DNA of 64,000 nt from a virus (IMGVR_UViG_3300035498_000844:9842-73841), one strand, 5' to 3'. Shown: positions 3,677 to 20,535, counted from the first letter of the stretch. Numbers and translations: made by a program. Notes: generated by a model not told the origin, from the letters alone.

Positions 3677-4217
3677 AGGTAATTTACTCCTTTTGTTTAT
3701 TATTTATTTCTTACCTCTTTATACATATATTATATCAAAAATTTTTGAAAAATTCAAGCGGCGGGTTTAACTCTGTGCAAAAGCCTGACTAATCCAGTTT
3801 CTAAAAATTTTGCTAGATTTACCTTCTCATGAATATTTTTCCGACACAAAAGAAAAATAAGCTTAAAATGGAAGCGGGATTAAAAATAGCTTTTTTTAAT
3901 ATTATATCATATTTTATTATAAAAGTCAAATAACTGCGCGAACGGCGCATATGAGTCCGCAATTCGGGATTTCGGAGGAAAGAGGAAATAGGTCCAAACA
4001 ACTATAAAAATTGGCCATATGGTAAGTGGGATGGGGTCTCGGCCCTTGCTGGTCGCCAGCGGGCCGCTAATTATAACATACTTTTATGCGCTTGTCAATA
4101 GGCAAAATATATAAATTTTTTATTGAAATTTCGTTAAAAATCACTAAAAAATAATAAAATAACACAAAAAATGGAGCTTTTTAGCTCCATTTCCGCATTT
4201 TTTATGCAATTTGTACA

Positions 4218-4625
4218 TTATTTCTTTGGTTTCCGCTTCTGAATTAGATTTACTTCAAACTTTTCATCCCCAATAGAAAAGGAAATCAACTTACCAACAT
4301 TCAAAATTTCCACATTTTCCGCAAAATTTGGGAGAATTTTTGCAATTTCCGCAATTACCATTTCTTTTGTAGGATTTTCTTTTCTGGTGCGCTCTTTCTG
4401 GGTTTTCTTTTTTGGCTCTGCTGATGTTGCTTGATGAATGGTTGCGGTAATGCGATTTTCTTTAGCTTTCTTTTCAAGCTCTTCCTGTTCCTCATTTTCA
4501 AGATAGCCTTCATCTTCTAACCACATCTGAACAGCTTCTTCTTTTGTAATGCTCCAGTGTTCCATACTCTGTTTGATTTCGCTATCTGGAATTTTGATAT
4601 TCTTACCATCTAAATTATAAGTCAT
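4218..4625 (-). CDS. hypothetical protein, paralog of 8208-8573
   Basis: Similar ITKEEAVQMWLEDE / LTREEAEQLYDED and ISFSIGDEKFEVNL / ITFKIGKNDYSLVL; start taken at MTYNLDG after GAGG. Confidence 0.75.
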   Translation of the reverse strand: MTYNLDGKNIKIPDSEIKQSMEHWSITKEEAVQMWLEDEGYLENEEQEELEKKAKENRITATIHQATSAEPKKKTQKERTRKENPTKEMVIAEIAKILPNFAENVEILNVGKLISFSIGDEKFEVNLIQKRKPKK

Positions 4626-4774
4626 GTTATTAACCTCTCTTTCCATGCTTTCCTTTTGTTTCTAAAAATATTATAACAAAAAATTTTTAAAATGTCAATA
4701 GTTTTTTTAAAAAGTTTTGAGCGGCATTTCAACCGCTCAAAGGAAAGGAGGGAAACAATGTTAGGATAGTAAAA

Positions 4775-4886
4775 TGGAGCTTACAAGATTTGAACTTGTG
4801 ATACTTTGGTTAGAAGTGGTTTGCCTTGTATATTTTTCTTTCAAGTTACCATCTTAAAAGAAAATATATCCATAGCCTAAAGCCCC
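4775..4886 (-). ncRNA. tRNA-like RNA with a greatly extended D arm and unpaired Arg(UCU)-like anticodon arm
   Basis: Acceptor GGGGCTT/AAGCTCC+A; T arm ACAAG-TTCAAAT-CTTGT; long AT-rich hairpin with ATGGTAA loop in the D-arm position; CT-TCT-AA loop with non-pairing stem. Confidence 0.6.
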
Positions 4887-4893
4887 AATTAAA

Positions 4894-4966
4894 TCTGCCT
4901 AATGGGATTCGAACCCATGCTCCCATGATTAAAAGTCATGTGCTTTACCAACTAAGCTACAGGCAG
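4894..4966 (-). tRNA. tRNA-Lys (anticodon UUU), CCA not encoded
   Basis: Full cloverleaf: CTGCCTG/TAGGCAG, GCTT-AGTTGGTA-AAGC, CATGA-CTTTTAA-TCATG, ATGGG-TTCGAAT-CCCAT. Confidence 0.93.
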
Positions 4967-5025
4967 TCAATGGGACTAAAAAGTCCCAAAGGAAAGGAGG
5001 AAAAGCAATATTTAGTTAATAAAAA

Positions 5026-5109
5026 CTGCCTAGTAAGATTTGAACTTACATTAGTCTATCTTCACAAAATTGTATCTTCAAACTGTTTTACCTTTTAAAC
5101 TATAGGCAG
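5026..5109 (-). ncRNA. tRNA-like RNA with expanded anticodon arm
   Basis: Acceptor CTGCCTA/TAGGCAG, D arm GTTT-AAAAGGTA-AAAC, T arm GTAAG-TTCAAAT-CTTAC; 30-nt arm GTTTGAAGATACAATTTTGTGAAGATAGAC in place of the 17-nt anticodon arm. Confidence 0.65.
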
Positions 5110-5133
5110 TGGGGGCTTTCGCCCCCCATCCGC

Positions 5134-5517
5134 TTAGGCGAGAGAGAAGAAAGCTTTCTTCTTCTCATAGGTCTTTACAACCTCACCAGAATCAACCATC
5201 TTTTTAAGGATTGCAGACAACTTCTGATTGGAAATCTTTCTACCATCTTCCAGAGTATAAGTTGCTACACTTTCATTCTCAAGTAATGCAGATACAGTAA
5301 CAGGCTCACCAATTTCAGCGAGAACATCCTTAATGGTAGCAATTACCGCAATATTCTCTTTCTGGGTTTTAGTCAGAGTGGACTTGCTAGACTTTTTGTC
5401 CAGAAGCTCGATTTCATGATCAATAAAAGCCATGATATCATTAATGCGCTCATCTCCAGATTCAGTAACAATGACCTTCAGAACCTCATACCAATCTTTC
5501 TTTGTCATCTTTGTCAT
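5134..5517 (-). CDS. putative winged-helix DNA-binding protein, paralog of 8623-9006
   Basis: Both start MTKMTKKDWY and end KKA(F/Y)FS(L/V)A; wHTH-like C-terminus PVTVSALL...SNQKLSAILKKMVDSGEVVK. Confidence 0.75.
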   Translation of the reverse strand: MTKMTKKDWYEVLKVIVTESGDERINDIMAFIDHEIELLDKKSSKSTLTKTQKENIAVIATIKDVLAEIGEPVTVSALLENESVATYTLEDGRKISNQKLSAILKKMVDSGEVVKTYEKKKAFFSLA

Positions 5518-5961
5518 AGTTCATACATCCTTTCTTTTTTGAAATGTTTTCTTTTCTTTTGATATAATCATTATATCATATTTCTTTTTGTTTGTCAAGA
5601 CTTTTTTTTATTTTTTTAAATTTTTTAAGGAATGCGCGAACCGCCTTGACTTCGGTTTTTTATTTCCTTTCTTTTGATAAGACTATTATAACAAAAATTT
5701 TTGAAAAAAACAAGTCGGAATATTGCACAAAGATCAACGAATTTTGGATGGATTATTTGTTCATTCTGCTATTGTGCAATGTGCATGAAATTCGGGAAGA
5801 GAAAGGCAAAAAAATTGGCTAAAATTGCTCTTGACAAATTTTGCAGGGTGTGGTATAATGGAATTTTCGGCGCTTGACATTTGTCTGCGCGCCGACGAAA
5901 AGTCAATAGATAATTTAAATAAAAAATAAAAGCCAAGTTTATGTGACTTGACTTTTAAATT

Positions 5962-6152
5962 TCAATCTTTAAAATCACTTGAATAAATCTGGTCTTCATA
6001 CCAGTATCCTTCTGTTTCCATTTTTTTTATAGCAAATTTTATTTCATCTTTTTTTTACAAGTTCTGGAGAGATATTCATTAAAACTATTAAAGGCATTTT
6101 CTTTCTTATGGAAAAAAAAAATTTCTCCATCATGATCCCAAATCCAAATCAT
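5962..6152 (-). pseudogene. small ORF broken by a 1-nt deletion in an A8 run (or sequencing error)
   Basis: MIWIWDHDGE...SRTCKK then a shift to DEIKFAIKKMETEGYWYEDQ...; start-to-stop length 191 nt. Confidence 0.5.
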
Positions 6153-6153
6153 T

Positions 6154-6342
6154 TTATTTACCTCTCTTTTCTGCCTTAATTGCGGAAACTCTTTTAGCTC
6201 GATACTCTGCGCTTACAGGTGGATTTTCCGCAACCTGTGTGTATTTTGGAACTGGTTTAACGCCTAACTGATTAGCTCTTGCAATTGCCTCTGGATAAGT
6301 TGTAATCTCTTCTTTTCCTACTAAATAAGTTAATTTTGTCAT
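6154..6342 (-). CDS. hypothetical protein
   Basis: GAGGAG RBS and own promoter (6373-6401). Confidence 0.75.
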   Translation of the reverse strand: MTKLTYLVGKEEITTYPEAIARANQLGVKPVPKYTQVAENPPVSAEYRAKRVSAIKAEKRGK

Positions 6343-6408
6343 TGTTTAAATCTCCTCTCTTTTGATGATTTAATTATAGCACACTCTCTTACTTTTGTCA
6401 ACAGGATT

Positions 6409-6897
6409 TTATAATCTTTTATTGATTTCAGTAATATTATATTTTACCTTATATTCTTTTAAGATATCCCTAATAATTGCACTATCTTTTGTTGTCTTAC
6501 TAAAAATATCAATGTTATAATAAAATTCGTTTCTATACTCAACAGGGTTTGAAGTATAGCTAATTGCAAAAGGTTCGAGCTTTTTAATTATATCTTTATC
6601 TTTTGTAGTAACAGAAATTTTCCATAAGCATTCTTTTTTGCAACTATCTATAATTAATCTGGATAAATAAACGCCAATTAAGTTGGTAGCAATTGTTACT
6701 ATTACTGTAATAGACACGTCAAGACTTGCAAGCTGTTTTACAATAATAGCATTAAAACCATAAGCAATTGCGTTAATAAGTGCGGCAACTCTACGGTCAG
6801 CCCGCAAAGTTAAAATTGATTTCATTGTGGAAAGCATTACGTTTATTAAGCTACAGATAAAGAAAATTATAATTCCAGTTGTTAAGATATTTTTCAT
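6409..6897 (-). CDS. membrane protein (DUF5698/DUF2179-like, three predicted TM helices)
   Basis: Hydrophobic segments and motifs INVMLSTMKSILT, AALINAIAYGF, IATNLIGVYL. Confidence 0.7.
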   Translation of the reverse strand: MKNILTTGIIIFFICSLINVMLSTMKSILTLRADRRVAALINAIAYGFNAIIVKQLASLDVSITVIVTIATNLIGVYLSRLIIDSCKKECLWKISVTTKDKDIIKKLEPFAISYTSNPVEYRNEFYYNIDIFSKTTKDSAIIRDILKEYKVKYNITEINKRL

Positions 6898-7114
6898 TAC
6901 TTATTCCACCTTTCTTTCTATTGTTATTATATCAGGTCTGAATGATTTTGTCAAACTTTTTTTTCTTAAATTTTTTCACCCATTTTTTGTAAATAGGACA
7001 TTTATGCCCTTTTCTACAAGTATAATTACAATAGAGGCAAACTCCAACAGTCCCTTTTTTATATGAATTTCCTTTCATAATAAATAATGCCTACCTTTCA
7101 ATTGGTTTGGACAA

Positions 7115-7417
7115 TTAATGTCCAAATCGAATATAGTGTTTCATCCAATTATCACCAAAATAATCTTTTAATTCTTTTTCATATTCTGGATAATTTTCAA
7201 GAATAGATAATTTATAAACACTATCTAAATCAATAATTGTTAACCAGTCACCATTGACACATTTTGAAAATCTTAAGGTATCCAAAATCCAGTCCATAGT
7301 TTCCTGTTTGAAATCCATTGTAACAAGTTCTTTTAATGTAATAAATTGCCCTTTAAAAATAGGTTTAATTTCAAAATTGCTTACTTTAGTTCCACTAATC
7401 TTAGGTTCAAATGTTAT
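7115..7417 (-). CDS. hypothetical protein; RBS-positioned start is ATA (first ATG at 7318)
   Basis: Frame is open for 33 codons upstream of ATG 7318 to an ATA 8 nt from GAGG, just downstream of promoter 7452-7480. Confidence 0.55.
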   Translation of the reverse strand: MTFEPKISGTKVSNFEIKPIFKGQFITLKELVTMDFKQETMDWILDTLRFSKCVNGDWLTIIDLDSVYKLSILENYPEYEKELKDYFGDNWMKHYIRFGH

Positions 7418-7522
7418 TTTATCTTCCTCTCTTTCTTTACCTTGTAATTATATTATAGCAAATCTTTTTAAACCTGTCAATAGTTTTTAAAAATCGCCTA
7501 GGAATTAACCTAGGCGATTTTA

Positions 7523-7675
7523 CTACATTACATAAGCACCAGCAATCGCCTTTACAGTACCATCAGGATTAAAAAAGATTACATTGTCCTGAATAACCTT
7601 AATGCCCTTAGCTCTCATCTCAGCGCGGAAAACATAGTCATTACGATACTTTCTCAGAAAATCAACTTTGCTCAT
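7523..7675 (-). CDS. hypothetical protein
   Basis: MSKVDFLRKY... after GAGG RBS; own promoter and downstream hairpin. Confidence 0.7.
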   Translation of the reverse strand: MSKVDFLRKYRNDYVFRAEMRAKGIKVIQDNVIFFNPDGTVKAIAGAYVM

Positions 7676-7740
7676 AATTTTTACCTCTTTCTTTCTTTGA
7701 TGGTTTAATTGTATCATAGAAGGACTTGTTTGTCAAGCCC

Positions 7741-7959
7741 TTATTTTCTTTTTGTGCAATAATTAAAAGCATTAATAACATCAAGAAAAAGCTCATTATC
7801 TTCTGCAATCTCAAACAGGTCGTCCATGTCTGACTCATCTGGAACTCCATAAAGAAGCCAGTATTTAATCATGTATTCATTGTCAACATGTTTAAGAACA
7901 TAAAGATCCATCTGTTTTAAAAGCAATACTCTGTCTACTAATAACCCTTTACTTTTCAT
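7741..7959 (-). CDS. hypothetical acidic protein
   Basis: MKSKGLLVDR... after GAGAGG RBS; own promoter. Confidence 0.7.
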   Translation of the reverse strand: MKSKGLLVDRVLLLKQMDLYVLKHVDNEYMIKYWLLYGVPDESDMDDLFEIAEDNELFLDVINAFNYCTKRK

Positions 7960-8207
7960 TTTTATTACCTCTCTTTCCTTTCTGTAATTATATTTTATCA
8001 AAATTTTTATAAAAAATCAATTGGCAGATTGCACAAATTTCGGGAATAATCTTTGTGTAAGATTACTAGTTAACAAAGCGCAAAAAATGTGCTATAATAA
8101 AAGGTTAGGTAAAAACGGGCGCGTCACGACCCACCGCGCGCCGCCAATTATATAACGCTTCTTCTCTGTTGTCAATAGGTAAAATGCACAAAAATACAGG
8201 ATGCATT

Positions 8208-8573
8208 TTATGCACCCTGCTGATTTTTTCGATGTTTGGTTAATACCAGTGAATAGTCATTTTTACCAATTTTGAAAGTAATTTCACGCTGACTATTAGC
8301 AATTTTGACTTCATCAGCGACAAGCATTTTAGCAATAGCACTAATGATTTCTACTTTTTCAGTGTCAACCTTTAAGACTCTTGCGGACTTTTTGCGGTCA
8401 GTAGTTCTATCTGCTTCATACCGCCGCTTCATTGATTTTGCTTTCTGTTCCATCTCCGCAACTTCTGGAAGAGTTTCATTAGAATTATCTTCATCATAAA
8501 GCTGTTCGGCTTCTTCTCTTGTGAGTCCTAAGACTTCCATGTGTTTCTGAATCTCTTTTTCTTTTTCGCTCAT
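8208..8573 (-). CDS. hypothetical protein, paralog of 4218-4625
   Basis: See paralog; AGAGGTG RBS. Confidence 0.75.
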   Translation of the reverse strand: MSEKEKEIQKHMEVLGLTREEAEQLYDEDNSNETLPEVAEMEQKAKSMKRRYEADRTTDRKKSARVLKVDTEKVEIISAIAKMLVADEVKIANSQREITFKIGKNDYSLVLTKHRKNQQGA

Positions 8574-8622
8574 GTAGTCACCTCTTTTTTAAAAAGGGTT
8601 AGTGGGGCTTTCGCCCCACTCT

Positions 8623-9006
8623 TTAAGCTACAGAGAAGTAAGCTTTCTTCTTCTCTACTTTCTTAACCACTCTTTCAGAGTCAACCAGTTTCTTCATTAA
8701 AGCGGAAACTTTCTGGTTGGAAAGGTGGTTGCCATCTTTCAGAGTATAAGTTGCGATAGCTTCATCTTCCATGAGTTCAGTAATAGTTACTGGTTTCGCG
8801 ATTTCTACAAGTGTGTCATAGATCTTTTCGATCACTTCTGTGTTCTCTTTCTGGGTCTTAGTCAGAGTGGACTTACTAGACTTTCTGTCCAGAAGCTCAA
8901 TCTCATGATCGAGGAAAGAAATAATGTCATCCTTGCGGTCAACTTCAGTAGCCTCAACAATACCTCTTAAAACATTGTACCAATCTTTCTTAGTCATCTT
9001 TGTCAT
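8623..9006 (-). CDS. putative winged-helix DNA-binding protein, paralog of 5134-5517
   Basis: High visual identity with 5134-5517; near-identical RBS region (AAAGGATGTATGAA) and downstream GGGGC-TTTC-GCCCC hairpin. Confidence 0.75.
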   Translation of the reverse strand: MTKMTKKDWYNVLRGIVEATEVDRKDDIISFLDHEIELLDRKSSKSTLTKTQKENTEVIEKIYDTLVEIAKPVTITELMEDEAIATYTLKDGNHLSNQKVSALMKKLVDSERVVKKVEKKKAYFSVA

Positions 9007-9172
9007 AATTCATACATCCTTTCTTAAATGAATTTTCTTTTTGTTTACATTGTTATTATAACTCTTTTTCTTTTGTTTGTCAAGGACTTTTTTATTTTTT
9101 TAGAAGTTTTTGTTTCCCCTTGGCTTTGAAAACTCTCTTTTTTGTTTGTATCTTTATTATACAGGATAAAGC

Positions 9173-9367
9173 TTATTTTGTCAAGCACTTTTTTCCAACT
9201 TTCTTTGCAATTCTCTGTCCGAGAAGTTTAATATGCGGATCTGATGAATTACAATATTTGATTGCAAAATATCTAGGATGATTGGCAATTCTCATACAAA
9301 ACCTTGCTTCTTCATTAATTGAAAAATCATATTTGCGCTGACCTCTTAATGCTTTAGGATAACCCAT
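9173..9367 (-). CDS. hypothetical basic protein
   Basis: GGAG RBS, own promoter. Confidence 0.7.
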   Translation of the reverse strand: MGYPKALRGQRKYDFSINEEARFCMRIANHPRYFAIKYCNSSDPHIKLLGQRIAKKVGKKCLTK

Positions 9368-9469
9368 TTTTTAAATCTCCTTTTCTTTTGATAATTCTAT
9401 TATAAATGATAAGTTATATTTTGTCAAGCGTTTTTTTAAAAAATTTTTCACCCGTGGGGAGTGTTCGCA

Positions 9470-10189
9470 CTAGGCGAACACTTTTCTTAAATCCAACTCT
9501 TTTCTTTTTCTCTGTGGCAACCGCCAACAAGCTGTATTAATTTTCTTATCCATCTTTTTATGAGTCGCAAAACATTTTGCCATAATGTCTACTTCAATTT
9601 CCACATCTTCAAGTCCAGTATGCTTTTCACAAAATTCTGGTGAGTCAATAAGAAATCTATAGCAAGCTTCTGCGGATGTCTGGATGTTTCCCGCTTCACT
9701 TTCAAGACCATTCTGTAAAGCAAATTTAATATAACTTGTGCTATTGAGAATTACTTGACAAGCCATAGACCAGATACAAAAATATTCTGTCCCGAATGGG
9801 AAAAACCATCTAACTAATGACTTGCTACAATAGCGAATTACATTGTTTAATGCTCTTTTATCAAAGTTCATATTATAAGCGCCGACTTTTTTAACATTCC
9901 ATGCTTTCATATCTGCTTTAATCTGTTTTCTGATATTAAAGATGGATTTTAAAATGCGGCTTCCGCTTTTAATATCATCCCAGTAGTTAGGAATCTTTTC
10001 CGCAAAGTATGCGGATTTCATCATCTCTGGATGGTCTAAAAAGATCTCTGCTACAACAAAACTTCTTTTAAGAACAATATGCCCTGTGCGGTCTGCAATA
10101 GCATAACCAATATCATAAGGCAAAGGCTGTTCCAAAGTGTTTGCGGTTTCAGTATCAATAACTAAGTAATATTCTTTTTTTCTGCTCAT
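9470..10189 (-). CDS. DEDDh-family 3'-5' exonuclease
   Basis: ExoI VIDTET, ExoII AYNMNFD, ExoIII HTGLED; start taken at MSRKKEYY after GAGG. Confidence 0.85.
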   Translation of the reverse strand: MSRKKEYYLVIDTETANTLEQPLPYDIGYAIADRTGHIVLKRSFVVAEIFLDHPEMMKSAYFAEKIPNYWDDIKSGSRILKSIFNIRKQIKADMKAWNVKKVGAYNMNFDKRALNNVIRYCSKSLVRWFFPFGTEYFCIWSMACQVILNSTSYIKFALQNGLESEAGNIQTSAEACYRFLIDSPEFCEKHTGLEDVEIEVDIMAKCFATHKKMDKKINTACWRLPQRKRKELDLRKVFA

Positions 10190-10238
10190 TTTTAATTTCC
10201 TCTTTCCTTTTGATGTAACTATTATAACTCCATTAGAA

Positions 10239-10466
10239 TTATTTGTCAAGCGTTTTTTCACTTTCTATCATATTTTTAATAAATAAATCAGAAAATGCGT
10301 CTCCATCAGCTTCGCTGACTTTATAGGCGATAAATTCCATAATAGTACCAATACCATACATGAAATGAAAGTCTCCATGACTTGCGTCATGCTTACCAAT
10401 AAACATATCGCATCCACTGTTGAGTATATCATTTAATACAATTCTATAAGCGTCTTGAGTTGTCAT
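10239..10466 (-). CDS. hypothetical protein
   Basis: 75-aa ORF with RBS and own promoter. Confidence 0.7.
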   Translation of the reverse strand: MTTQDAYRIVLNDILNSGCDMFIGKHDASHGDFHFMYGIGTIMEFIAYKVSEADGDAFSDLFIKNMIESEKTLDK

Positions 10467-10680
10467 TTTTCTTGCTTCCTTTCCTTACCTTGTAAATACA
10501 TTATAGCACCACAGCCGCAGAAAGTCAAGTAGTCAAATTGCACAAATTTCGGGATCCAAAAAATAAAATATTTGTGCAATTTTTCTCTTGACAAAAACTG
10601 ATACATATGATATAATTAAATTTTGGGTCGCGCAAGGACCCTGCGCGACCCGTCAATAATAAAATAAAAAAGCGATATTT

Positions 10681-10830
10681 CTATCGCTTCATAAGCCATT
10701 CATATCTAGCTTTCACTCTGTCAAATTCAAGACTACCATTTTCGCATGCTTCAACTAATGCGCAAAAACCAATTGTTTGTCTAGCTTCAGGACCAAATTT
10801 TCTAATTATATCAATAATCATTTTATCCAT
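10681..10830 (-). CDS. small hypothetical protein, paralog of 16091-16243
   Basis: IIRKFGPEARQTIGFC...VKARYEWLMKR. Confidence 0.7.
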   Translation of the reverse strand: MDKMIIDIIRKFGPEARQTIGFCALVEACENGSLEFDRVKARYEWLMKR

Positions 10831-10890
10831 TTTCAATTCCTCTCTTTCTTTTGATAGCTCTATTATAACATGCTTTTTTCTTTTTGTCAA

Positions 10891-11310
10891 TTAGTTATAT
10901 TCAATTTTTTGAATTATTTCTGTTCCATCGTCTTGTTTTTTATAGGTAATAGTTTTTGTAACTATAATTGTATCACCAATATTATAATTATCATAAATAC
11001 TTTTAGATACTTCTGTTTTTTCATCATCCCAAATTACATAATAATCATAAACAAAATGTCCACCTTTTCCGGGTATTCCTACAAAATGACGATCTTCTTT
11101 TTTATCTTCAATTTGAATAACAATTTCTGTTTTTTCAGTCCTAAAGATTTGTTTGGAAAGTTTATCATCTTTAAAAAGTCCAATTAAGAAAAATAATCCA
11201 CCAACAAGAATTAAAAAATATCGCATTTTATAATTTTTATTATCATCTAATATCATACCTAAGAAAAAAATAATACATCCAACAATAGTTAACCATATCC
11301 AATTTATCAT
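10891..11310 (-). CDS. membrane protein with two N-terminal TM helices
   Basis: WIWLTIVGCIIFFLGMIL and YFLILVGGLFFLIGLF; small beta-rich C-terminal domain. Confidence 0.7.
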   Translation of the reverse strand: MINWIWLTIVGCIIFFLGMILDDNKNYKMRYFLILVGGLFFLIGLFKDDKLSKQIFRTEKTEIVIQIEDKKEDRHFVGIPGKGGHFVYDYYVIWDDEKTEVSKSIYDNYNIGDTIIVTKTITYKKQDDGTEIIQKIEYN

Positions 11311-11398
11311 TTTCAAGTCCTCTTTTTCTTTTGATAAATTAATTATAAGGGATAAAATGCTTTTTATCAAGTGCTTTTTTGAAATTTTAAAGAGATTT

Positions 11399-11854
11399 TT
11401 ATAATCTCTTTAAAATTTCAATAATATTATTCGTAGCATCAACTGTAATTCCTAAATCCCAGTCATCACGATTTTTCTTTTCATCATCAATTAAGATTCC
11501 ATAACCATATTTTCTACAAGTATCTGCTTTTTTAATTCCATAGGCTGTAATTAAAATTTTGTCAAGAATGATATCAAAACCATAATTTTCTAACCAGTTC
11601 ATTTTTGCTTTAATGACTCTTTTATTAAATTCTTCCGTAGGAACTTTACTTAACCAACTAATAATTCCAATATTATATCCCTTTTCTTTTAAATCAACCA
11701 GAGTAGCTAAAAGATCTAAGGTGTTATAAAGCGGTTTTGCTTCTCTGTAAGGTCTTTCGTTGTAGCTTCTTAAATCTTCAAGCCATCCATCTACGCCGTA
11801 GAAATCACAAATGCTTCCATCCATATCTAACCAAATCCATTTATCTTTTTTCAT
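11399..11854 (-). CDS. HAD-superfamily 5'(3')-deoxyribonucleotidase-like phosphatase
   Basis: Motif I WLDMDG, motif II IISW, motif III K, motif IV ILIDD. Confidence 0.8.
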   Translation of the reverse strand: MKKDKWIWLDMDGSICDFYGVDGWLEDLRSYNERPYREAKPLYNTLDLLATLVDLKEKGYNIGIISWLSKVPTEEFNKRVIKAKMNWLENYGFDIILDKILITAYGIKKADTCRKYGYGILIDDEKKNRDDWDLGITVDATNNIIEILKRL

Positions 11855-11911
11855 TTTTCTTACTTCCTTTCCTTTTCTGTATCTTTATTATAGGACAAAA
11901 GACTTATTTTG

Positions 11912-12370
11912 TCAAGCCTTTTTTCGTTTTTTCTTTTTTAAATTTTCAAGTGTACGGGATGTTACAATTTGTGCTCCATTAAATTTAATTTGAATTTCTT
12001 TTCCATTTACATTTAAATCACCTTCTATATAAAAGGGAATATTGTCTTTTCCTCTGAAAGGTTTGTCATGCAATTCTGAAATAACTCTTTCAAATTCTAC
12101 GCCTTTATTATATTTGCCAATTAAAATATTTTCTGAACCAATAATAAATGCGCCTTTTCTAATTAATTGTTCTTGATAATGTTTTGGAAGTCTTAATTGA
12201 AGTTTTTCACAACCCCCACGTTTAGAACTTTCATGTTCAACTTTTAGGTATCTAGGCATAATTTCTGCAACCTCTATCATATAAACTTCATGTTTATAAA
12301 TAAAGCCTAAAATGTAAGAATCCGCAGCACTGTATTTTCTATAATTACGAATCATTGTTTCTTTTGTCAT
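11912..12370 (-). CDS. hypothetical protein
   Basis: MTKETMIRNY... after GAGG; C-terminal GDLNVNGKEIQIKF faintly resembles a PD-(D/E)XK core. Confidence 0.7.
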   Translation of the reverse strand: MTKETMIRNYRKYSAADSYILGFIYKHEVYMIEVAEIMPRYLKVEHESSKRGGCEKLQLRLPKHYQEQLIRKGAFIIGSENILIGKYNKGVEFERVISELHDKPFRGKDNIPFYIEGDLNVNGKEIQIKFNGAQIVTSRTLENLKKKKRKKA

Positions 12371-12372
12371 TT

Positions 12373-12624
12373 TTATAACACCTCTCTTTCTTCTACTTTG
12401 TAAGAAGCAAAAATACCTTTGTAATACCAATTTAAAATTTCTTTAGTATTTAAAAATTTATTTTCATCATATTCATGTTTGTTTTCCAAACCAAATTTTC
12501 CATTGTAGCAATGAAAAATTTTTGTATCCTTAATACAACTTTTAATATAATCAACAGCTTTCTTTTTAGAAGATACGATTGCAATTATTTTTTCTGCTTC
12601 ATAAATTAAATATACTTTCTTCAT
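12373..12624 (-). CDS. hypothetical protein
   Basis: MKKVYLIYE... after GAGG; own promoter. Confidence 0.65.
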   Translation of the reverse strand: MKKVYLIYEAEKIIAIVSSKKKAVDYIKSCIKDTKIFHCYNGKFGLENKHEYDENKFLNTKEILNWYYKGIFASYKVEEREVL

Positions 12625-12673
12625 TTTTCTTTTCCTCTTTCCTTTTGATAAGCTTATTATAGCATATATGTTG

Positions 12674-12823
12674 TTATTTGTCAATCACTTTTACAAAAAA
12701 GCAATTAACAGGATGAACAAGTGCTAAATAAGAATTTTTTGCTCTAGTTACTTCTTTTTCAGCCTCTTCTTTTGTTTCATAAGTTCCAAGTACGTGTCCA
12801 CTAACGATTGCCTGATATTTCAT
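12674..12823 (-). CDS. 49-aa hypothetical protein (absent from ORF track)
   Basis: MKYQAIVSGHVLGTYETKEEAEKEVTRAKNSYLALVHPVNCFFVKVIDK; GGGAG RBS; promoter 12854-12882. Confidence 0.7.
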   Translation of the reverse strand: MKYQAIVSGHVLGTYETKEEAEKEVTRAKNSYLALVHPVNCFFVKVIDK

Positions 12824-12889
12824 TTTTTGATCTCCCTTCCTTTTGATGATTTAATTATAGCACGCTAATCTCTATTTGTCAATTACTTT

Positions 12890-13114
12890 TTAAAAATATT
12901 TTTCTTGATCTTCCCAGTATTCTTTTTTATAGCAATTATAAAAGATTTTCATAAACCAATATTTAAAACCAGAAATGACAGTTGCTTTAGTAGAAATATT
13001 TCCTTTGCTATACCAGTATTGATTAGCTTCTTCCATATTTTTTACAACAAAAATATATTGTCTTTTATGATTTTTATTTAACTGAACCCATTTTTCAATT
13101 TTATAGTGTACCAT
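12890..13114 (-). CDS. hypothetical aromatic-rich protein
   Basis: MVHYKIEKW... after AAGGAG RBS, preceded by a ~100-nt structured leader. Confidence 0.65.
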   Translation of the reverse strand: MVHYKIEKWVQLNKNHKRQYIFVVKNMEEANQYWYSKGNISTKATVISGFKYWFMKIFYNCYKKEYWEDQEKYF

Positions 13115-13507
13115 ATTTTTCTCCTTTCGGTGGGACTGTAGCCACCTTAGACTAACCACCTAAAATTCATTAACTGACTAGTCCAAGCTGTGTGGCATCC
13201 GCAATCCCTTTCCTTGATTATAGTATAACACAACTGAACGAGATTACAATAGGTAATTTGCACAAAATTTGAGGTGCGGTTTTGTGCAAAATTTTTGTGG
13301 CATTTCGGGATAAAATATATAAAAATTTTGTGCAAATTGTCTATTGACAAAATGAGCGATTCATGATATAATTGAAATTTCGCCGGCGTGAGGACCGTAC
13401 GCCGCCCGTCAAAAAGTCAAGTGGAAAATTGCACAAAATTTCATTTTTATTTTGTGCATTTTTATTTAAAAATTTAAAAAAAATGGAGAAAAATTTACTC
13501 TTCTCCA

Positions 13508-13641
13508 CTACATCACCTTTTCTCCACTCTGAAATCTTCTTTCTAATTCATTTAATCTGTTGTACTCTTCTTTGGTGATTTTTTACCAGTCATCATCTTG
13601 CCAATTAATTTTACTCTTTCTTTATCTTCTTTCTTAGTCAT
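13508..13641 (-). pseudogene. small ORF broken at an A6 run (or sequencing error)
   Basis: MTKKEDKERVKLIGKMMTGK / ITKEEYNRLNELERRFQSGEKVM*; 134 nt; followed by a terminator hairpin. Confidence 0.5.
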
Positions 13642-13726
13642 TTTTTTAATCTCCCTTTCTTTTGATGATTTAATTATACATCAGACATGCTTATTTGTCA
13701 ATACTTTTTTAATAAAAATAAAAGAC

Positions 13727-13915
13727 CTAGATTGATCTAGGTCTTAAGTTGATAGTAGCGGTAACTTTAAATCTTCCATCTTTTAAGCTTGATGTTTCGA
13801 TTGAAAGAACTTGATTTTCGCAATCTTTCATAACTTTTTTAATGATTTCTAATCCTTCCTCTGCGTTTCTTGCGAATCCTTTTACTTTAAATTCATTCAT
13901 AGTTGTTGCAGTCAT
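13727..13915 (-). CDS. hypothetical protein
   Basis: MTATTMNEFK... after GAGG; own promoter and terminator. Confidence 0.7.
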   Translation of the reverse strand: MTATTMNEFKVKGFARNAEEGLEIIKKVMKDCENQVLSIETSSLKDGRFKVTATINLRPRSI

Positions 13916-13982
13916 TTTTATTTTCCTCTCTTTCTTTTGATACACTTATTATACTATATAATGATTAGTTTGTCAATACTTT

Positions 13983-14105
13983 TTATTCTTTAATTTTAAA
14001 AATCCATCCTTCGCGCAACTTTTCTACAGTAAATAAATACTGATTATTAGTAAGATATTTTATCAGTCTATCATAAGATTCTTTTTTGCTAACTAACATT
14101 GCCAT
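13983..14105 (-). CDS. 40-aa hypothetical protein (absent from ORF track)
   Basis: MAMLVSKKESYDRLIKYLTNNQYLFTVEKLREGWIFKIKE; GAGGGGG RBS; promoter 14140-14168. Confidence 0.7.
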   Translation of the reverse strand: MAMLVSKKESYDRLIKYLTNNQYLFTVEKLREGWIFKIKE

Positions 14106-14168
14106 GTTTGTTACCCCCTCTTTATTTGATTATGTATTTATTATAACATGAAAGTAATTATTTGTCAA

Positions 14169-14453
14169 CTACTTTTTTAATCTTACTTTTACGACTTCAT
14201 CATCATAAATATTTGAATCAGTACCATTATTATTCATCTGTAATACTACTTTATCACCAATAGAAAAGCCACTTCCTTCAAATTCCCATAGATTTCCAGT
14301 TTCATCTTCTGCCAGATAAAGAGTTGCGGTTTCTTGATCAATAATTGTTGCATTGCGACTATAATGGCTTTCAATATAACTTGCAAAAAAAATACCAAAT
14401 GAAATTAAAACAGCCAAACCCGCAAGTTCAATATTTTCAATAATTTTTCTCAT
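14169..14453 (-). CDS. membrane-anchored OB-fold-like protein
   Basis: N-terminal TM LAGLAVLISFGIFFASYI then EDETGNLWEF...GDKVVLQM. Confidence 0.65.
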   Translation of the reverse strand: MRKIIENIELAGLAVLISFGIFFASYIESHYSRNATIIDQETATLYLAEDETGNLWEFEGSGFSIGDKVVLQMNNNGTDSNIYDDEVVKVRLKK

Positions 14454-14582
14454 TTTCTCTTTCCTCTTTTCTTTTGATGTATTTATTATAACAAATTTAA
14501 TTAAAATTGTCAAGTGTTTTTTTAATAATAAAGAAAGCTTTTTATCAAGCCTTCTTTATTATTAAATTATTGAGTCCTTTTG

Positions 14583-14804
14583 TCAAGAGAAAAGAAAAAA
14601 GCTTTTATCGACGTACATCCAGTAAGATTCTACACATACTGACTTAGTTTTATCATCCATGTATACTAAATAATGGTCATCATTTTTAACACCAACTAAA
14701 AAACAACCATTATCATACTCAAAGTCTACATCTAATTCAATCAATTGAGCTTTGATTTCTTCATAAGACATACCTATAAACATACCATTTTCTAAATCCA
14801 TCAT
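14583..14804 (-). CDS. small acidic hypothetical protein
   Basis: GAGG RBS, own promoter. Confidence 0.65.
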   Translation of the reverse strand: MMDLENGMFIGMSYEEIKAQLIELDVDFEYDNGCFLVGVKNDDHYLVYMDDKTKSVCVESYWMYVDKSFFLFS

Positions 14805-15051
14805 TTTTTGTTTCCTCTCTTTCTTTCCTTCATCTTATGTCTTTATTATATCACGTTTGCTGTAAAAGTCAAGTAGTTTTTCAATTTTTTTATTTTTTCT
14901 ATAGACCTTAAATTGCGTTAAGGTCTATAGAATTTGCAAGAATTTTTGTAAAGAATGGAACGTACGCGCTGCTCAAAATTTGTCAATAGTAAAAATATAC
15001 AAAAATTAGCAGGTCGTTTTGGTGCAACCTGCTGAATTTTTATTTTAGCTT

Positions 15052-15291
15052 TCATTTTCTGTTTTTTCTAGCTATTTCTCTGCCGCATTCAATTTTTCCG
15101 ATTCTTTCTTCTTTTTCTGTAATTTTTCCATTAAATACCATTGTAACTTTATACATTGTAAAATTTACATTCCATGTATCCTTAATAGCATCTTCTCTTG
15201 CGTCTTTTTCTGTCTCAAATTTTCTTTCTTGAAAATCTCTTCCTTCCATTCCACCGTAGCTTGTAGTTTTGTAATAAGTAATTTCTGTCAT
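15052..15291 (-). CDS. hypothetical protein
   Basis: 79-aa ORF with RBS and own promoter. Confidence 0.7.
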   Translation of the reverse strand: MTEITYYKTTSYGGMEGRDFQERKFETEKDAREDAIKDTWNVNFTMYKVTMVFNGKITEKEERIGKIECGREIARKNRK

Positions 15292-15408
15292 TTCTTTTTA
15301 CCTTAATCCTTTTTGGATTTCCTTTCCTTTTGATGGTTTAATTATAACTCCTTAGTAGCTTTTTGTCAAGCACTTTTTAAAATTTTTTTTATTTTTTGAA
15401 GAGACTTT

Positions 15409-15501
15409 TTACTTAGCCTCTTCAAACATCTCTTCATCAGAAATTTCAAGTTCTTTCATAAGATCTTCTAAAGTTGCTCCGTACATCATCATCTCTGTCA
15501 T
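15409..15501 (-). CDS. 30-aa highly acidic peptide (absent from ORF track)
   Basis: MTEMMMYGATLEDLMKELEISDEEMFEEAK; GGGAG RBS; promoter 15532-15560. Confidence 0.65.
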   Translation of the reverse strand: MTEMMMYGATLEDLMKELEISDEEMFEEAK

Positions 15502-15579
15502 TGTTTTGTTCTCCCTTCTTTTGATGGTTTAAGTATACCATACGTTACAATAAATGTCAACAGTTTTTTAAAAAATTTT

Positions 15580-15642
15580 TAAAAATAAAAAATTGCAGGC
15601 TGAGTGTCTGCGTCCTATCTGGTGTCCACTCCTTCTCCCACT
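15580..15642 (-). ncRNA. candidate ~60-nt GGA-rich small RNA
   Basis: Promoter 15646-15674, no start codon, GCAG/CTGC hairpin plus U-tract. Confidence 0.4.
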
Positions 15643-15835
15643 ATTATAATATCATGTTTATGCGGAAAAGTCAAGCAGTTTTTATTGTTAATTTTTTAAC
15701 AATCTTCGCCCTTTGGATTGCGGGATTCAGCTTTAAAATGCGAAAACCTAGCTTTTCTGCGGAAAAAGCTAGGTCTATGTTACTATGGAGTGAACCGAGC
15801 TACCTACGATTGTTCGCGGTAACCCTTGAAGTGTA

Positions 15836-16006
15836 TTACTTCAAAAATGTGCTAATAGCTTCAAAGCAAACGTTTGCATTGTCCTTTGACTTTGTGTCTT
15901 CTTGTTCAGCAAAATTGTTCATTGCTGATGAGATAAGATCTTTGACACTCACAAAGTTAAGTACAAGCCTTAAAGCTGCTAGTTCGTCTAAGCTAACCTT
16001 GCCCAT
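15836..16006 (-). CDS. 56-aa hypothetical protein (absent from ORF track)
   Basis: MGKVSLDELAALRLVLNFVSVKDLISSAMNNFAEQEDTKSKDNANVCFEAISTFLK; AGGAG RBS; promoter 16049-16077. Confidence 0.7.
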   Translation of the reverse strand: MGKVSLDELAALRLVLNFVSVKDLISSAMNNFAEQEDTKSKDNANVCFEAISTFLK

Positions 16007-16090
16007 TCGGTTCGACTCCTTTCTATATTCTATTTTCTTTATATTATTATTATACCATAAAATTTTTTAAAAGTCAAAATGAAGCGGTTT

Positions 16091-16243
16091 TCACCGCTCC
16101 ATTAGTTCATTATACCTAGCTTTAATCTGCTTCATAGTCGGATTCCCGCCTAACTGAATACAAAATAAACAAAAGTCAAGTGTTTCATCTGCCTCAAACC
16201 CAAATTTTCTAATTACTTTATCCATCATCTGTTCTTTTGTCAT
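16091..16243 (-). CDS. 50-aa hypothetical protein, paralog of 10681-10830 (absent from ORF track)
   Basis: MTKEQMMDKVIRKFGFEADETLDFC...IKARYNELMER. Confidence 0.75.
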   Translation of the reverse strand: MTKEQMMDKVIRKFGFEADETLDFCLFCIQLGGNPTMKQIKARYNELMER

Positions 16244-16347
16244 ATCTTATTCCTTCTTTCTTTTGATACCACTATTATAACGTAGTAGCTAGTTAATGTC
16301 AAGCGGTTTTCGTATCTTTACCGCTCTTTTTATCCCGCCCAAAGTCA

Positions 16348-16659
16348 CTATGAAGTGACCCAGCCGCGTTTCTTTTTTATAGCTTCATACTTTTCCGCTT
16401 TTTCTTTTTCAATTTTTTCTTTATTATACTCTCTGACCTTAATCTTAAGATAATTATATCTTTTTAAATCAGCTTTTGTCCAATAACGCTTGACACAGAT
16501 CTTTTCAATGCCTTTGATCCTCAATGTTTTAACAAAGTTCTCTTTACCTATTGTTCTGATAAGCTCATTGTCTTGCTTTATAATACAACTCACTGGTTTG
16601 TATTCTCCTGTTGTGCAAAACAGTGTGACTTGATACTCTTTCAACATAATTATCATCAT
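16348..16659 (-). CDS. basic hypothetical protein
   Basis: 103-aa ORF with AAGGA RBS. Confidence 0.7.
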   Translation of the reverse strand: MMIIMLKEYQVTLFCTTGEYKPVSCIIKQDNELIRTIGKENFVKTLRIKGIEKICVKRYWTKADLKRYNYLKIKVREYNKEKIEKEKAEKYEAIKKKRGWVTS

Positions 16660-16712
16660 CCTTTTTTTATTATAATATCCTTGTTATTCATGTTATTCAT
16701 TGAGTATGAAGC

Positions 16713-16925
16713 TTAACAAGCTTCATACTCTTCATCATCGGAATACTCACGATAATCCCAAGGAATTTTACATTCTGAACCATTATCATAGCAACGATAG
16801 ACTTCTATTGAGCCGCATTGTGACATTGCAAATTGAGAAGCTTTATGTTTTGAAGAGAACCAGAACTCTTTATCAGACTCCATCATGCTATATGCTTTCT
16901 TTACCACTTTATATCCCTTTACCAT
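16713..16925 (-). CDS. hypothetical protein
   Basis: GGAAGGA RBS, own promoter. Confidence 0.65.
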   Translation of the reverse strand: MVKGYKVVKKAYSMMESDKEFWFSSKHKASQFAMSQCGSIEVYRCYDNGSECKIPWDYREYSDDEEYEAC

Positions 16926-17363
16926 TTTTATTTCCTTCCTTTCTTGTCTGTTTCCTTACCTTGTAAATACATTATAGCATTGTCGTTTAAGAAAAGCAAT
17001 AGGCAAATTGCACAAAGATTCAATTATAACTTTGTGCAACTTTTTCTTAATTTATGTTTTCATGATAATGCACTTTAGGGAAAATTTTAATTGGCAAAAT
17101 GAACAAAACAACTGCGAAAAAATTGTGCATTATTACTATTGACAAGGCAAGTCGGCTCGCATTGACTGTGCGCGAGCCGAGCAATTGAGGGTAGCTGCTA
17201 GAAAGCAAAGAGAAAAATCGTGTAAAGAACCTGACGTACTCGCGCAATAAAGGGGGCGTATATTTCGGGAAAATAAAAATTTCGATCGTTAGATTGGGTT
17301 TTGCCTGAACAAAAAAATCTCCAAAAGTATTTTCAAAATCAAAACACGAATCTTAAATAATTT

Positions 17364-17471
17364 TTAATCCTTAACTTTAGCTTCTTTTAATAGCTCTTCC
17401 GCATTTCTTTCATATATTCAGACATTTTAATATATCTATTTGTGTTTGTTGTCTTTGAAAAATTCTATCAT
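17364..17471 (-). pseudogene. small ORF with two apparent repeat-contraction frameshifts
   Basis: MIEFF / QRQQTQIDILKCLNI / YERNAEELLKEAKVKD*; breaks fall at a T5 run and an (AT)n tract. Confidence 0.35.
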
Positions 17472-19359: not shown

Positions 19360-20535
19360 ATGGCAAATTTAGAAGAAGATGCGCTCTATGAAGAGGAAGA
19401 AAATGATATAGAAAATGCGGATTTGGATAAATCAATAGAAGAAAAAATTGTTGAAGAAAATATTAAACCAACAAGGAAATTAGATTATACACTCGCAACC
19501 CCGCAAGAGCGCAATGAATTAGTCAAAAAGATTATAGATGAAACTCCTCCTGAACAGCTTACTAATAGATACTTAGAAATTTTAACCGATTATATAATTT
19601 TCGCTATGGATAAAGAAGAGCGAAAACAGAAAAAAATCTTAACTGATAATAGAATGGTAACTGTTAACAAAAGAGAGACATCTTTCCAAGGCTTAGCAAG
19701 TAAACTTGAAAATGGAGAAGACGGCATCTATAATATGATTGCAAATGATAAAAATATCATTTTTACACCTAAAGTATCAATTACACAAGAAGATATTGCG
19801 GCGATCCCTGCTTTAAAGCGCCTCAGAACTGCTATCGAAGAGGTAGAGGAACAGGAAAAAGCGGCAACGGGCAAGCGCAAGTTTTTATTAAAAAAACAAT
19901 TAATTGAAATGCGCCAAGACCAATATGTTATAAAAAATTCTTATCATCAACCTATCTATTGCATGAATGCAATTAAAAGTTTTTCAAAATTACAACTTGA
20001 TGAAACTATTAAAATAGTAGATAATGAGCCAGTTAGTAATGGATTAATTTCATTATTTAATCCAAAACATATTTCTGCGCTTTTGTGTAATTATTCAAAA
20101 TTAAAAGAAGATTCTTGGGGAAAGTTTTGGAGTGATTCATATTTTTTAATGGAAGATTTAGATAATTTAATTGAAGAAACTTTAAAAGATAAATATCCAT
20201 TATATTATGATTTACTTATCTATAAAATTGATGGTAAACAAAATATAGAAATTCAAGAACTTTTAAATGAAAAGCATGGAATTAAGCATTCAGTTGAATA
20301 TATTTCATCTTTATGGAGAAATAAAATTCCTAAGCTATTGGCGGAACAAGCACAAAAAGATTATTTAGTTTGGTATTATACTACTCAAGAATATGGTAAA
20401 TGGAAAAAATGTTCAAGATGTGGGAAAATTAAATTAGCTCATAATAAGTTTTTTTCAAAAAATAAGACCGCAAAAGATGGCTACTACAGTATATGCAAGG
20501 TATGTCGCAACAAGAAGTCTGGATCAAAAAAATAG
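19360..20535 (+). CDS. putative DNA-binding protein with HTH/sigma-region-4-like segment and C-terminal Zn ribbon
   Basis: LLIYKIDGKQNIEIQELLNEKHGIKHSVEYISSLWRNKIPKLL; CSRC...CKVC. Confidence 0.55.
   Translation: MANLEEDALYEEEENDIENADLDKSIEEKIVEENIKPTRKLDYTLATPQERNELVKKIIDETPPEQLTNRYLEILTDYIIFAMDKEERKQKKILTDNRMVTVNKRETSFQGLASKLENGEDGIYNMIANDKNIIFTPKVSITQEDIAAIPALKRLRTAIEEVEEQEKAATGKRKFLLKKQLIEMRQDQYVIKNSYHQPIYCMNAIKSFSKLQLDETIKIVDNEPVSNGLISLFNPKHISALLCNYSKLKEDSWGKFWSDSYFLMEDLDNLIEETLKDKYPLYYDLLIYKIDGKQNIEIQELLNEKHGIKHSVEYISSLWRNKIPKLLAEQAQKDYLVWYYTTQEYGKWKKCSRCGKIKLAHNKFFSKNKTAKDGYYSICKVCRNKKSGSKK

Follow-up and report, generated by a model that had tools for sequence, protein, structure and literature searches.

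Repeated, convergent or divergent promoters are known from several phages. The OOP RNA of lambda and the sar RNA of P22 are cis-antisense RNAs made from convergent promoters; they are single-copy, about 70-77 nt long and have their own terminators. The pR/pL pair of phage 186 and the A2c/A3 pair of phi29 with its protein p4 are single-copy developmental switches, with promoters tens of bp apart and a phage protein placed upstream of the -35 hexamer. In the promoter/stem-loop (PeSL) elements of T4-type phages, a stem-loop that terminates the gene before it is placed upstream of the promoter, and the promoter is co-directional with the genes and is followed by a Shine-Dalgarno (SD) sequence and a start codon (PMC4122927). 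In a synthetic part that combines a one-way terminator with an antisense promoter, the degree to which the upstream gene is repressed is proportional to the strength of that promoter, and the contributions of antisense RNA and polymerase collisions to this effect have been separated and quantified (Brophy and Voigt 2016, PMC4731013). In addition, 5'-terminal stem-loops or polypurine tracts stabilise mRNAs such as ompA, papA, the aprE leader and the SP82 polypurine transcript (PMC3997798). Here we analyse a repeated intergenic cassette in a 64,000-nt stretch of the virus record IMGVR_UViG_3300035498_000844, called the window below. We found no published description of this cassette in the literature. 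With a probability of about 0.55, we read it as a conserved phage regulatory cassette in which operator-gated divergent promoters give rise to a hairpin-capped backward transcript that would insulate or silence the preceding gene block, and which would also serve as a substrate for recombination.

The window comprises bases 9842-73841 of a record with a full length of 73,841 bp, the completeness of which is rated at 56%. It has about 30% GC, and Megablast gave no match to the INPHARED phages. Its + strand encodes a portal protein, a large terminase, a tape measure of 2802 aa and a phage sigma factor from 19.3 kb onwards. The minus strand carries about 33 TTGACA-N17-TATAAT promoters, perfect or one-off, between 3.9 and 16.5 kb, about one promoter per small gene; this segment is an early region. 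To judge from the sequences compared here, the cassettes sit at gene-block borders among the early genes of a group of large phages, uncultivated and of the rumen or gut type. Each consists of two boxes, TTTGTGCA, placed back to back, each 9 (or 19) bp upstream of the -35 hexamer of a divergent sigma-A-like promoter. We propose that the phased boxes form the operator of a putative, probably phage-encoded, DNA-binding protein, which would touch RNA polymerase while bound to a single side of the helix, and would time both promoters. The gene-side promoter would drive the next gene block. The backward transcript would run antisense into the preceding block and lower or insulate its expression by polymerase collision and RNA pairing, and the hairpin could be a 5'-terminal nuclease shield for the transcripts of either facing promoter. 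As a side effect, blocks are gained or lost in relatives, apparently by homologous recombination between cassettes.

The initial annotation had described a recurrent box motif, and its frequency is far above chance: the 73.8-kb record contains 15 copies of TTTGTGCA where about 2.6 would be expected, and 13 of the 15 are at 5.7-17.0 kb. Box pairs were collected from 0.9 Mb of related loci. Among 104 back-to-back pairs with boxes within 75 bp of each other, 75 had a spacing of exactly 22 or 32 bp and a further 15 one of 21 or 33 bp; direct or face-to-face pairs had no favoured spacing. The hairpin-side box lies 9 bp from the -35 hexamer in the 32-bp class and mostly 19-20 bp from it in the 22-bp class; gene-side offsets are 9-10 bp or 19-20 bp. 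The offset thus shifts with the spacing class, indicating that the promoters stay fixed and the box moves by one helical turn. Action from one helix face requires such 10-bp steps, which points to the boxes being operator half-sites of a putative DNA-binding protein. A site upstream of -35 that moves in whole helical turns, next to a weak -35, is also the arrangement of a class I type upstream activator. In the literature, the box sequence was met with in unrelated primers and nowhere else.

As the binder of the boxes we considered the winged-helix paralogues encoded at 5134-5517 and 8623-9006, a family with 639 homologues, no Pfam family and multiple copies in relatives. They were set aside: the AlphaFold model, though confident (predicted local distance difference test, pLDDT, 87), is a generic winged helix, and the genes are found downstream of box promoters no oftener than those of other families. 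As a separate observation on the operator, GATC is strongly avoided in the complete relative G001 (loci L031-L038; 109 copies vs. 403 expected), and it is retained in the operator tag GATCCCGAAA of several cassettes, including operators in locus L016. This retention hints that the site matters, possibly via methylation sensitivity.

The two promoters of the cassette differ in kind. Gene-side promoters, with (G)ATCCCGAAA beside the box, have 1.5-2.0 mean mismatches in the -35 hexamer. Since they lead into an SD sequence and a gene, the motif TTCGGGA is a tag of the operator's gene side. Hairpin-side promoters, which fire backward, have 0.2-0.4 mean mismatches, and most of them possess a TG extension and GG after the -10 hexamer. 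No open reading frame (ORF) follows the backward promoter. Downstream of it the sense strand is pyrimidine-rich in 92% of the units, from which we conclude that the genes are on the other strand and that the promoter is antisense; here the coding strand was assigned by purine skew, the longest-ORF test being uninformative in AT-rich DNA. The neighbouring terminator is one-way and its U-tract adjoins the cassette hairpin, which in single-promoter units lies 5-17 nt from the terminator stem of the neighbouring gene. The layout is therefore that of a cis-antisense promoter, situated past the 3' end of a transcription unit, convergent with it and across a one-way terminator. In 24 of 32 units no sense-strand terminator was found within 130 nt, so the antisense RNAs are probably not short. 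The initial annotation had suggested a protein-controlled switch making short structured antisense RNAs; phased boxes, co-varying hairpin arms, strand-biased loops and the 92% antisense share favour the switch and the structured antisense RNA, and it is the word "short" that has become doubtful.

The hairpin itself comprises 6-17 bp, nearly all G/C. Altogether 235 distinct promoter-hairpin units were gathered, in which the lead from the -10 hexamer to the stem was 6-10 nt in 152 (left-type) and 1-5 nt in 64. In the left-type units (mode 8 nt, n=152) there are 122 distinct 5' arms that share no core sequence, and still 98.6% of the stem pairs are Watson-Crick, compared with 39.6% (maximum 43.9% in 1000 shuffles) when the arms are shuffled among units. 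Homologous modules whose flanks are 74-76% identical (window copy M4 vs. L008, M3 vs. L009) have stems that differ and yet still pair. Comparison of these sequences thus argues that the hairpin is under selection for pairing. A covariance model of the hairpin was dropped, as the MAFFT register shifts with loop length and RNAalifold gave 6 pairs; arm complementarity was measured directly instead. The loops are purine-rich on the sense strand of the promoter, although that strand is otherwise pyrimidine-rich, and AGG (42 vs. 12) and GGA (37 vs. 9) are commoner on the transcribed than on the opposite strand. From the lead (peak 8 nt, range 6-10), the hairpin is predicted to begin about 0-3 nt from the RNA 5' end. 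The RppH of Bacillus subtilis requires at least two unpaired 5' nucleotides, and mRNAs are stabilised by 5' stem-loops (PMC3997798). In Rfam, only tRNAs reach the gathering score and nothing credible appears up to E 5, so no family was found for the hairpin. [quoted passage not shown]

In some units two promoters share one hairpin. Copies of the M1/M3 type have an extra perfect promoter, which is on the far side of the hairpin and points towards the backward promoter; some 37 bp separate the two -10 hexamers. We found 31 hairpins flanked by two convergent promoters, and in 28 of these a long-lead (left-type) promoter faces a short-lead (right-type) one; the other three combine a promoter with a longer leader and a short-lead one, and no pair is of the same type. 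For 25 of the 31 pairs, the distance between the facing -10 hexamers is 36-38 nt. If transcription started about 7 nt beyond each -10, the hairpin would contain the first nucleotides of the RNAs from both sides, and a palindrome serving both strands would explain the strictly Watson-Crick stems.

The cassettes are also sites where gene blocks come and go. The single module of locus L011 is a chimera, consisting of the first module of L003 up to the -10 or the initial transcribed segment and of the second L003 module from the hairpin on. A block of 1.13 kb with four small genes, located in L003 between its two tandem modules, is absent at L011. L001 and L009 have only a 194-bp module in common (94% identity), which lies between unrelated genes, beginning at the left gene's SD and ending shortly beyond the hairpin, and the homology of L010 with L011 stops at a module. 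In the relatives, the cassette is the sole sequence that otherwise unrelated blocks share. No match to PF00589 (tyrosine recombinase) or PF01797 (Y1 transposase) was found in genomes G000-G004, including G001, which is 100% complete. Because the crossover falls in the conserved promoter segment and these two families are absent, block exchange looks, from the loci compared, like homologous rather than site-specific recombination. The earlier idea of a recombination site that delimits exchangeable blocks thus holds in relatives as far as the blocks are concerned, and its attC-like part is unsupported. An integron attC site is not supported, since attC is an imperfect palindrome with a conserved core and extrahelical bases, as opposed to stems that are 98.6% perfect, with 122 arms and no core, and PF00589 is lacking in G000-G004. 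Repetitive extragenic palindromes or bacterial interspersed mosaic elements (REP/BIME) with REP-associated tyrosine transposases (RAYT) are not supported either, the stems differing between copies instead of forming one conserved palindrome, and PF01797 being lacking in G000-G004.

An 18-mer spanning the box and TTCGGGA was found in 16 IMG/VR contigs, and 16/16 had the full layout of gene, SD, promoter, box, spacer, box, perfect promoter and hairpin. In 596 Gb of prokaryote assemblies the same 18-mer had 14 matches, close to the roughly 17 expected by chance (a rough hand estimate). Thirteen of these were in unrelated taxa and had no cassette, and the single real match was a rumen contig from a metagenome-assembled genome; no host-genome copy of the cassette was seen across these assemblies. 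As far as these searches show, the cassette appears to be confined to phage sequence. A looser box-promoter pattern detected 85 stretches in some 75 contigs of 5-402 kb and 31-46% GC from many samples, and the sigma factor of the window recurs in the relatives, as do several of its early genes. The box-promoter signature is present in L074 and L096 (IMGVR_UViG_3300032167_000002, 402,311 bp). Because contigs as large as 402 kb bear this signature, the carriers of the cassette range in size from roughly 130 kb up to megaphages. A genome has 5-12 copies, and 8-12 co-oriented ones fall in a stretch of about 12 kb; the promoter-hairpin units of the relative G001 (complete, 142 kb) are found only at 26.9-38 kb, all opposite to the early-gene strand.

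In the window, about seven related elements had been noted at first. Five are good copies (M1-M5); the one near 14960 is a remnant without a fold (M6), and the one at 17152-17180 is atypical, as it lacks a -10 (M7). Their features are as follows.

4040 to 4066, unstranded: GC hairpin of M1, with outer arms CGGCCC/GGGCCG and an inner helix
4070 to 4098, minus: right-type perfect promoter of M1, its -10 at 3 nt from the hairpin; no + strand partner
5685 to 5731, minus: gene-side promoter and box of M2, with a weak -35; the box, TGCACAAA, is on the + strand at 5724-5731
5831 to 5859, plus: backward promoter of M2, 12/12 consensus, with TG
5867 to 5895, plus: hairpin of M2, at the predicted 5' end of the backward transcript; -15.9 kcal/mol, z -2.7
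5927 to 5957, minus: terminator-like site beside M2, situated behind the preceding minus-strand unit
8030 to 8059, unstranded: operator of M3, with box 8030-8037, TTCGGGA 8039-8045 and degenerate box 8052-8059; 22-bp class
8070 to 8098, plus: backward promoter of M3, 11/12
8117 to 8142, unstranded: hairpin of M3, common to two face-to-face promoters
8147 to 8192, minus: right-type perfect promoter of M3 (8147-8175) with its own box (8185-8192), directly after the terminator 8196-8220
10500 to 10528, minus: gene-side promoter of M4, -35 TTGACT; serves the gene 10239-10466
10539 to 10578, unstranded: operator of M4, with box 10539-10546, TTCGGGA 10548-10554 and box 10571-10578; 32-bp class
10588 to 10616, plus: backward promoter of M4, 12/12
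10625 to 10651, plus: hairpin of M4, a perfect 10-bp stem with a 7-nt loop; -20.9 kcal/mol, z -4.9
10669 to 10690, minus: one-way terminator of the gene 10681-10890, adjoining the M4 hairpin
13259 to 13334, unstranded: operator region of M5, with boxes 13259-13266 and 13281-13288 (22-bp class), TTCGGGA 13304-13310 and a third box 13327-13334
13344 to 13372, plus: backward promoter of M5, 12/12
13383 to 13405, plus: hairpin of M5, imperfect in this copy
13430 to 13509, unstranded: extra back-to-back box pair (13430-13437, 13451-13458), followed by a minus-strand terminator (13482-13509)
14940 to 15033, minus: remnant M6, with terminator 15008-15033, a box-like motif, TTGACA and half a GC tract; no -10, no fold
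17009 to 17038, unstranded: operator of M7, with boxes 17009-17016 and 17031-17038, 22-bp class; the gene-side promoter for 16713-16925 is on the left
17123 to 17180, plus: hairpin region of M7, with a box-like motif, TTGACA (17140) and a hairpin with a 9-bp stem (17152-17180), no -10; kept in the relative L007

In agreement with the initial annotation, the promoter scan showed strong (perfect or near-perfect) + strand promoters within the minus-strand early region at 5831, 8070, 10588 and 13344 only, all pointing against the gene direction into a GC-rich hairpin 8-19 nt further on (5867-5895, 8117-8142, 10625-10651 and 13383-13405). The minus-strand consensus promoters at 4098 and 8175 point into the hairpins 4040-4066 and 8117-8142, respectively, so the promoters at 8070 and 8175 do face each other across a hairpin, as had been described. 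TTCGGGA occurs six times on the + strand of the 73.8-kb record (1.6 expected), exactly where it had been reported (3963, 5791, 8039, 10548, 13304 and 17264). As a shared core it was borne out at 8039 and 10548, where it is canonical and comes right after the box, and not at the other four sites, which are degenerate or displaced. Single-sequence fold z-scores were strong only for 10625-10651 (z -4.9) and 5867-5895 (z -2.7), and the case for the hairpins therefore rests on the comparative data.

Several further observations concern these copies and their surroundings. On the minus strand at 5600-5690, the gene-side promoter of M2 leads into an SD-like stretch and a small hairpin, and there is no ORF before the promoter of the winged-helix gene (5598). 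The box-dependent promoter of M5 is followed on the minus strand by a long leader (13160-13215) with a GC helix (GGTGGGAC...GCCACC) before the gene 12890-13159; this leader may be a regulatory 5' untranslated region and has no Rfam match. The promoter-less hairpin 17152-17180 is in a 470-bp gene-free region (17000-17470) that is conserved with L007:7625-8260, including a conserved block around the TTCGGGA at 17264, and L007 carries about 170 extra bases within it. A block is duplicated (4218-5517 and 8208-9006), each copy comprising a winged-helix gene, a 121/142-aa paralogue, a terminator and a cassette of the face-to-face type (M1, M3); the first copy (4218-5517) also contains tRNA-Lys and tRNA-like genes. 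On the minus strand at 15590-15680, a promoter-like site (15674-15646) precedes a stretch of about 55 nt without an ORF, rich in GGAG/GGGAG, which ends with a short hairpin and a T-run and is a candidate small RNA gene. In the phage sigma factor (19360-20535, phrog_5767), the C-terminal ~45 aa also match zinc-ribbon-like parts of the endonuclease VII and Lar families. The idea of N4-type hairpin promoters was dropped, as the 2802-aa ORF is a tape measure and not a virion RNA polymerase.

Some points weigh against an operator-gated antisense cassette with an RNA hairpin. Interference by collision alone needs no hairpin, and the backward promoters are already perfect consensus promoters, for which the need of a box is not evident. 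The winged-helix family is just a candidate for the box binder, without a special link to the boxes. The loops vary, and about three-quarters of the left-type units have neither GGA nor AGG. Mismatches in the stems amount to 18 of 1368 pairs, among which there is no RNA wobble signal (four G:T or T:G vs. eight A:C or C:A), and the stems could equally reflect selection that acts on the palindrome as DNA or on the two strands at once. Finally, M1, M6 and M7 of the window deviate from the canonical plan.

A bolder reading, which we consider rather unlikely, is that the cassettes could form a relay timing the early programme. At each border one phage regulator, bound to the phased boxes, would turn on the next block and at the same time launch a nuclease-resistant, hairpin-capped antisense RNA that silences the previous block, as in a repeated excludon-like arrangement, and a single palindrome would then cap the transcripts of both facing promoters.

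It is unlikely that the unit is a pure polymerase roadblock or insulator, in which a polymerase parked past the terminator blocks read-through, the GC tract slows its escape, and the RNA and its hairpin are functionless. The 0.2-0.4 mismatches in -35 and -10 of the hairpin-side promoters, mostly with TG and GG, from which we infer a tight hold on the polymerase, would suit such a role, as would the position directly after the terminator U-tract. The synthetic part represses the more, the stronger its antisense promoter is, and collisions contribute to this beside antisense RNA (PMC4731013). A GC-rich tract that is no palindrome would do as well for a roadblock, however, so that the 98.6% complementarity over 122 stems, the strand bias of the loops and the fixed 7-9-nt lead are left unexplained.

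We also find it unlikely that the GC palindrome acts as DNA, i.e., as a cruciform or single-strand hairpin for recombination, priming or the initiation of replication (attC-, REP- or origin-like), the promoters serving to open or supercoil the DNA. The near-perfect Watson-Crick stems with G:T not above A:C and the differences in gene blocks between relatives at these sites are consistent with such a function, and the right-type -10 is only 1-5 nt from the stem, so that the open complex would melt into the palindrome. On the other hand, the mapped crossover lies in the promoter segment and not in the hairpin, neither a tyrosine recombinase nor a Y1 transposase was found in G000-G004 (one of them 100% complete), and the 122 distinct arms in 152 units have no common stem core. 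Strand-biased loops and a fixed distance from the -10 are moreover what is expected of a feature of the transcript, and the 8-12 co-oriented copies in about 12 kb are unlike origins.

Quite unlikely, too, is a short, very stable hairpin RNA that acts as a decoy in trans, with an AGG/GGA loop binding the 30S subunit, CsrA-type proteins or a host nuclease or defence sensor, and with an incidental antisense position. In the loops, AGG and GGA are indeed enriched 3.5-4 times on the transcribed strand, the perfect promoters suggest a high output, and each genome has many copies. The loops are heterogeneous, however, GGA and AGG being absent from about three-quarters of the left-type units, most copies lack a terminator that would define a short RNA, no Rfam family matches, and the place beside the one-way terminator is strictly kept. 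That recombination has scattered duplicated promoter fragments and the copies are their functionless remains, of a neutral or selfish kind, is highly improbable despite the degenerate M6 and M7 and an M1 without its partner promoter, given cassettes conserved in ~75 contigs of 31-46% GC from many samples, exact 10-bp spacing steps and compensated arm changes.

There is no genetics for large uncultivated phages of the gut and rumen, in whose early regions one small unknown gene follows another. The cassette can be recognised from sequence alone and marks the borders of transcription units and gene blocks. It defines a regulon, box-dependent as opposed to plain early promoters, and hence a temporal class that can be tested, and it shows the sites of gene-block exchange. 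If the antisense or insulator role is true, the cassette would be a natural and widespread counterpart of a design built independently by synthetic biologists, and would provide compact parts for Gram-positive hosts (perfect promoter, 5' hairpin shield and phased operator).

Compared with the known systems, the cassette resembles OOP and sar in that a promoter beyond or inside a transcription unit fires back, giving an RNA complementary to the end of the mRNA. Here, however, a terminator is missing from most copies, a genome contains 5-12 of them, and each transcript is predicted to start with a hairpin. The switches of 186 and phi29 likewise have divergent or convergent promoters and a site upstream of -35 on one helix face, but the present unit is repeated at many block borders, and its box protein is only putative. 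Much as in the known 5' stabilisers, the hairpin is stable and its predicted distance from the 5' end is 0-3 nt, with some loops SD-like and purine-rich; those elements protect mRNAs, whereas here the transcript is chiefly non-coding and antisense, and the palindrome may serve two facing promoters. The synthetic part of Brophy and Voigt (2016, PMC4731013) has the same order of gene, one-way terminator and strong promoter firing back into the gene. The phage unit, in which repression is only predicted, is natural; it has an operator and a 5' GC hairpin besides, and a divergent gene promoter is coupled to it. The likeness to PeSL elements (PMC2839356, PMC4122927), which had been raised at the outset, extends to the evolutionary role and not to the anatomy: in our cassette the promoter is antisense, has no ORF and is followed by the hairpin, at 7-9 nt downstream of its -10, a phased two-box operator belongs to the unit, and the carriers are not T4-like myoviruses. 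Both are nevertheless repeated motifs of promoter and stem-loop in a hyperplastic region of small ORFan genes, both have a near-consensus early promoter of the sigma-70 type in a repeated intergenic motif, and in both the indels and replacements between related phages map to the motif, apparently by recombination between tandem copies.

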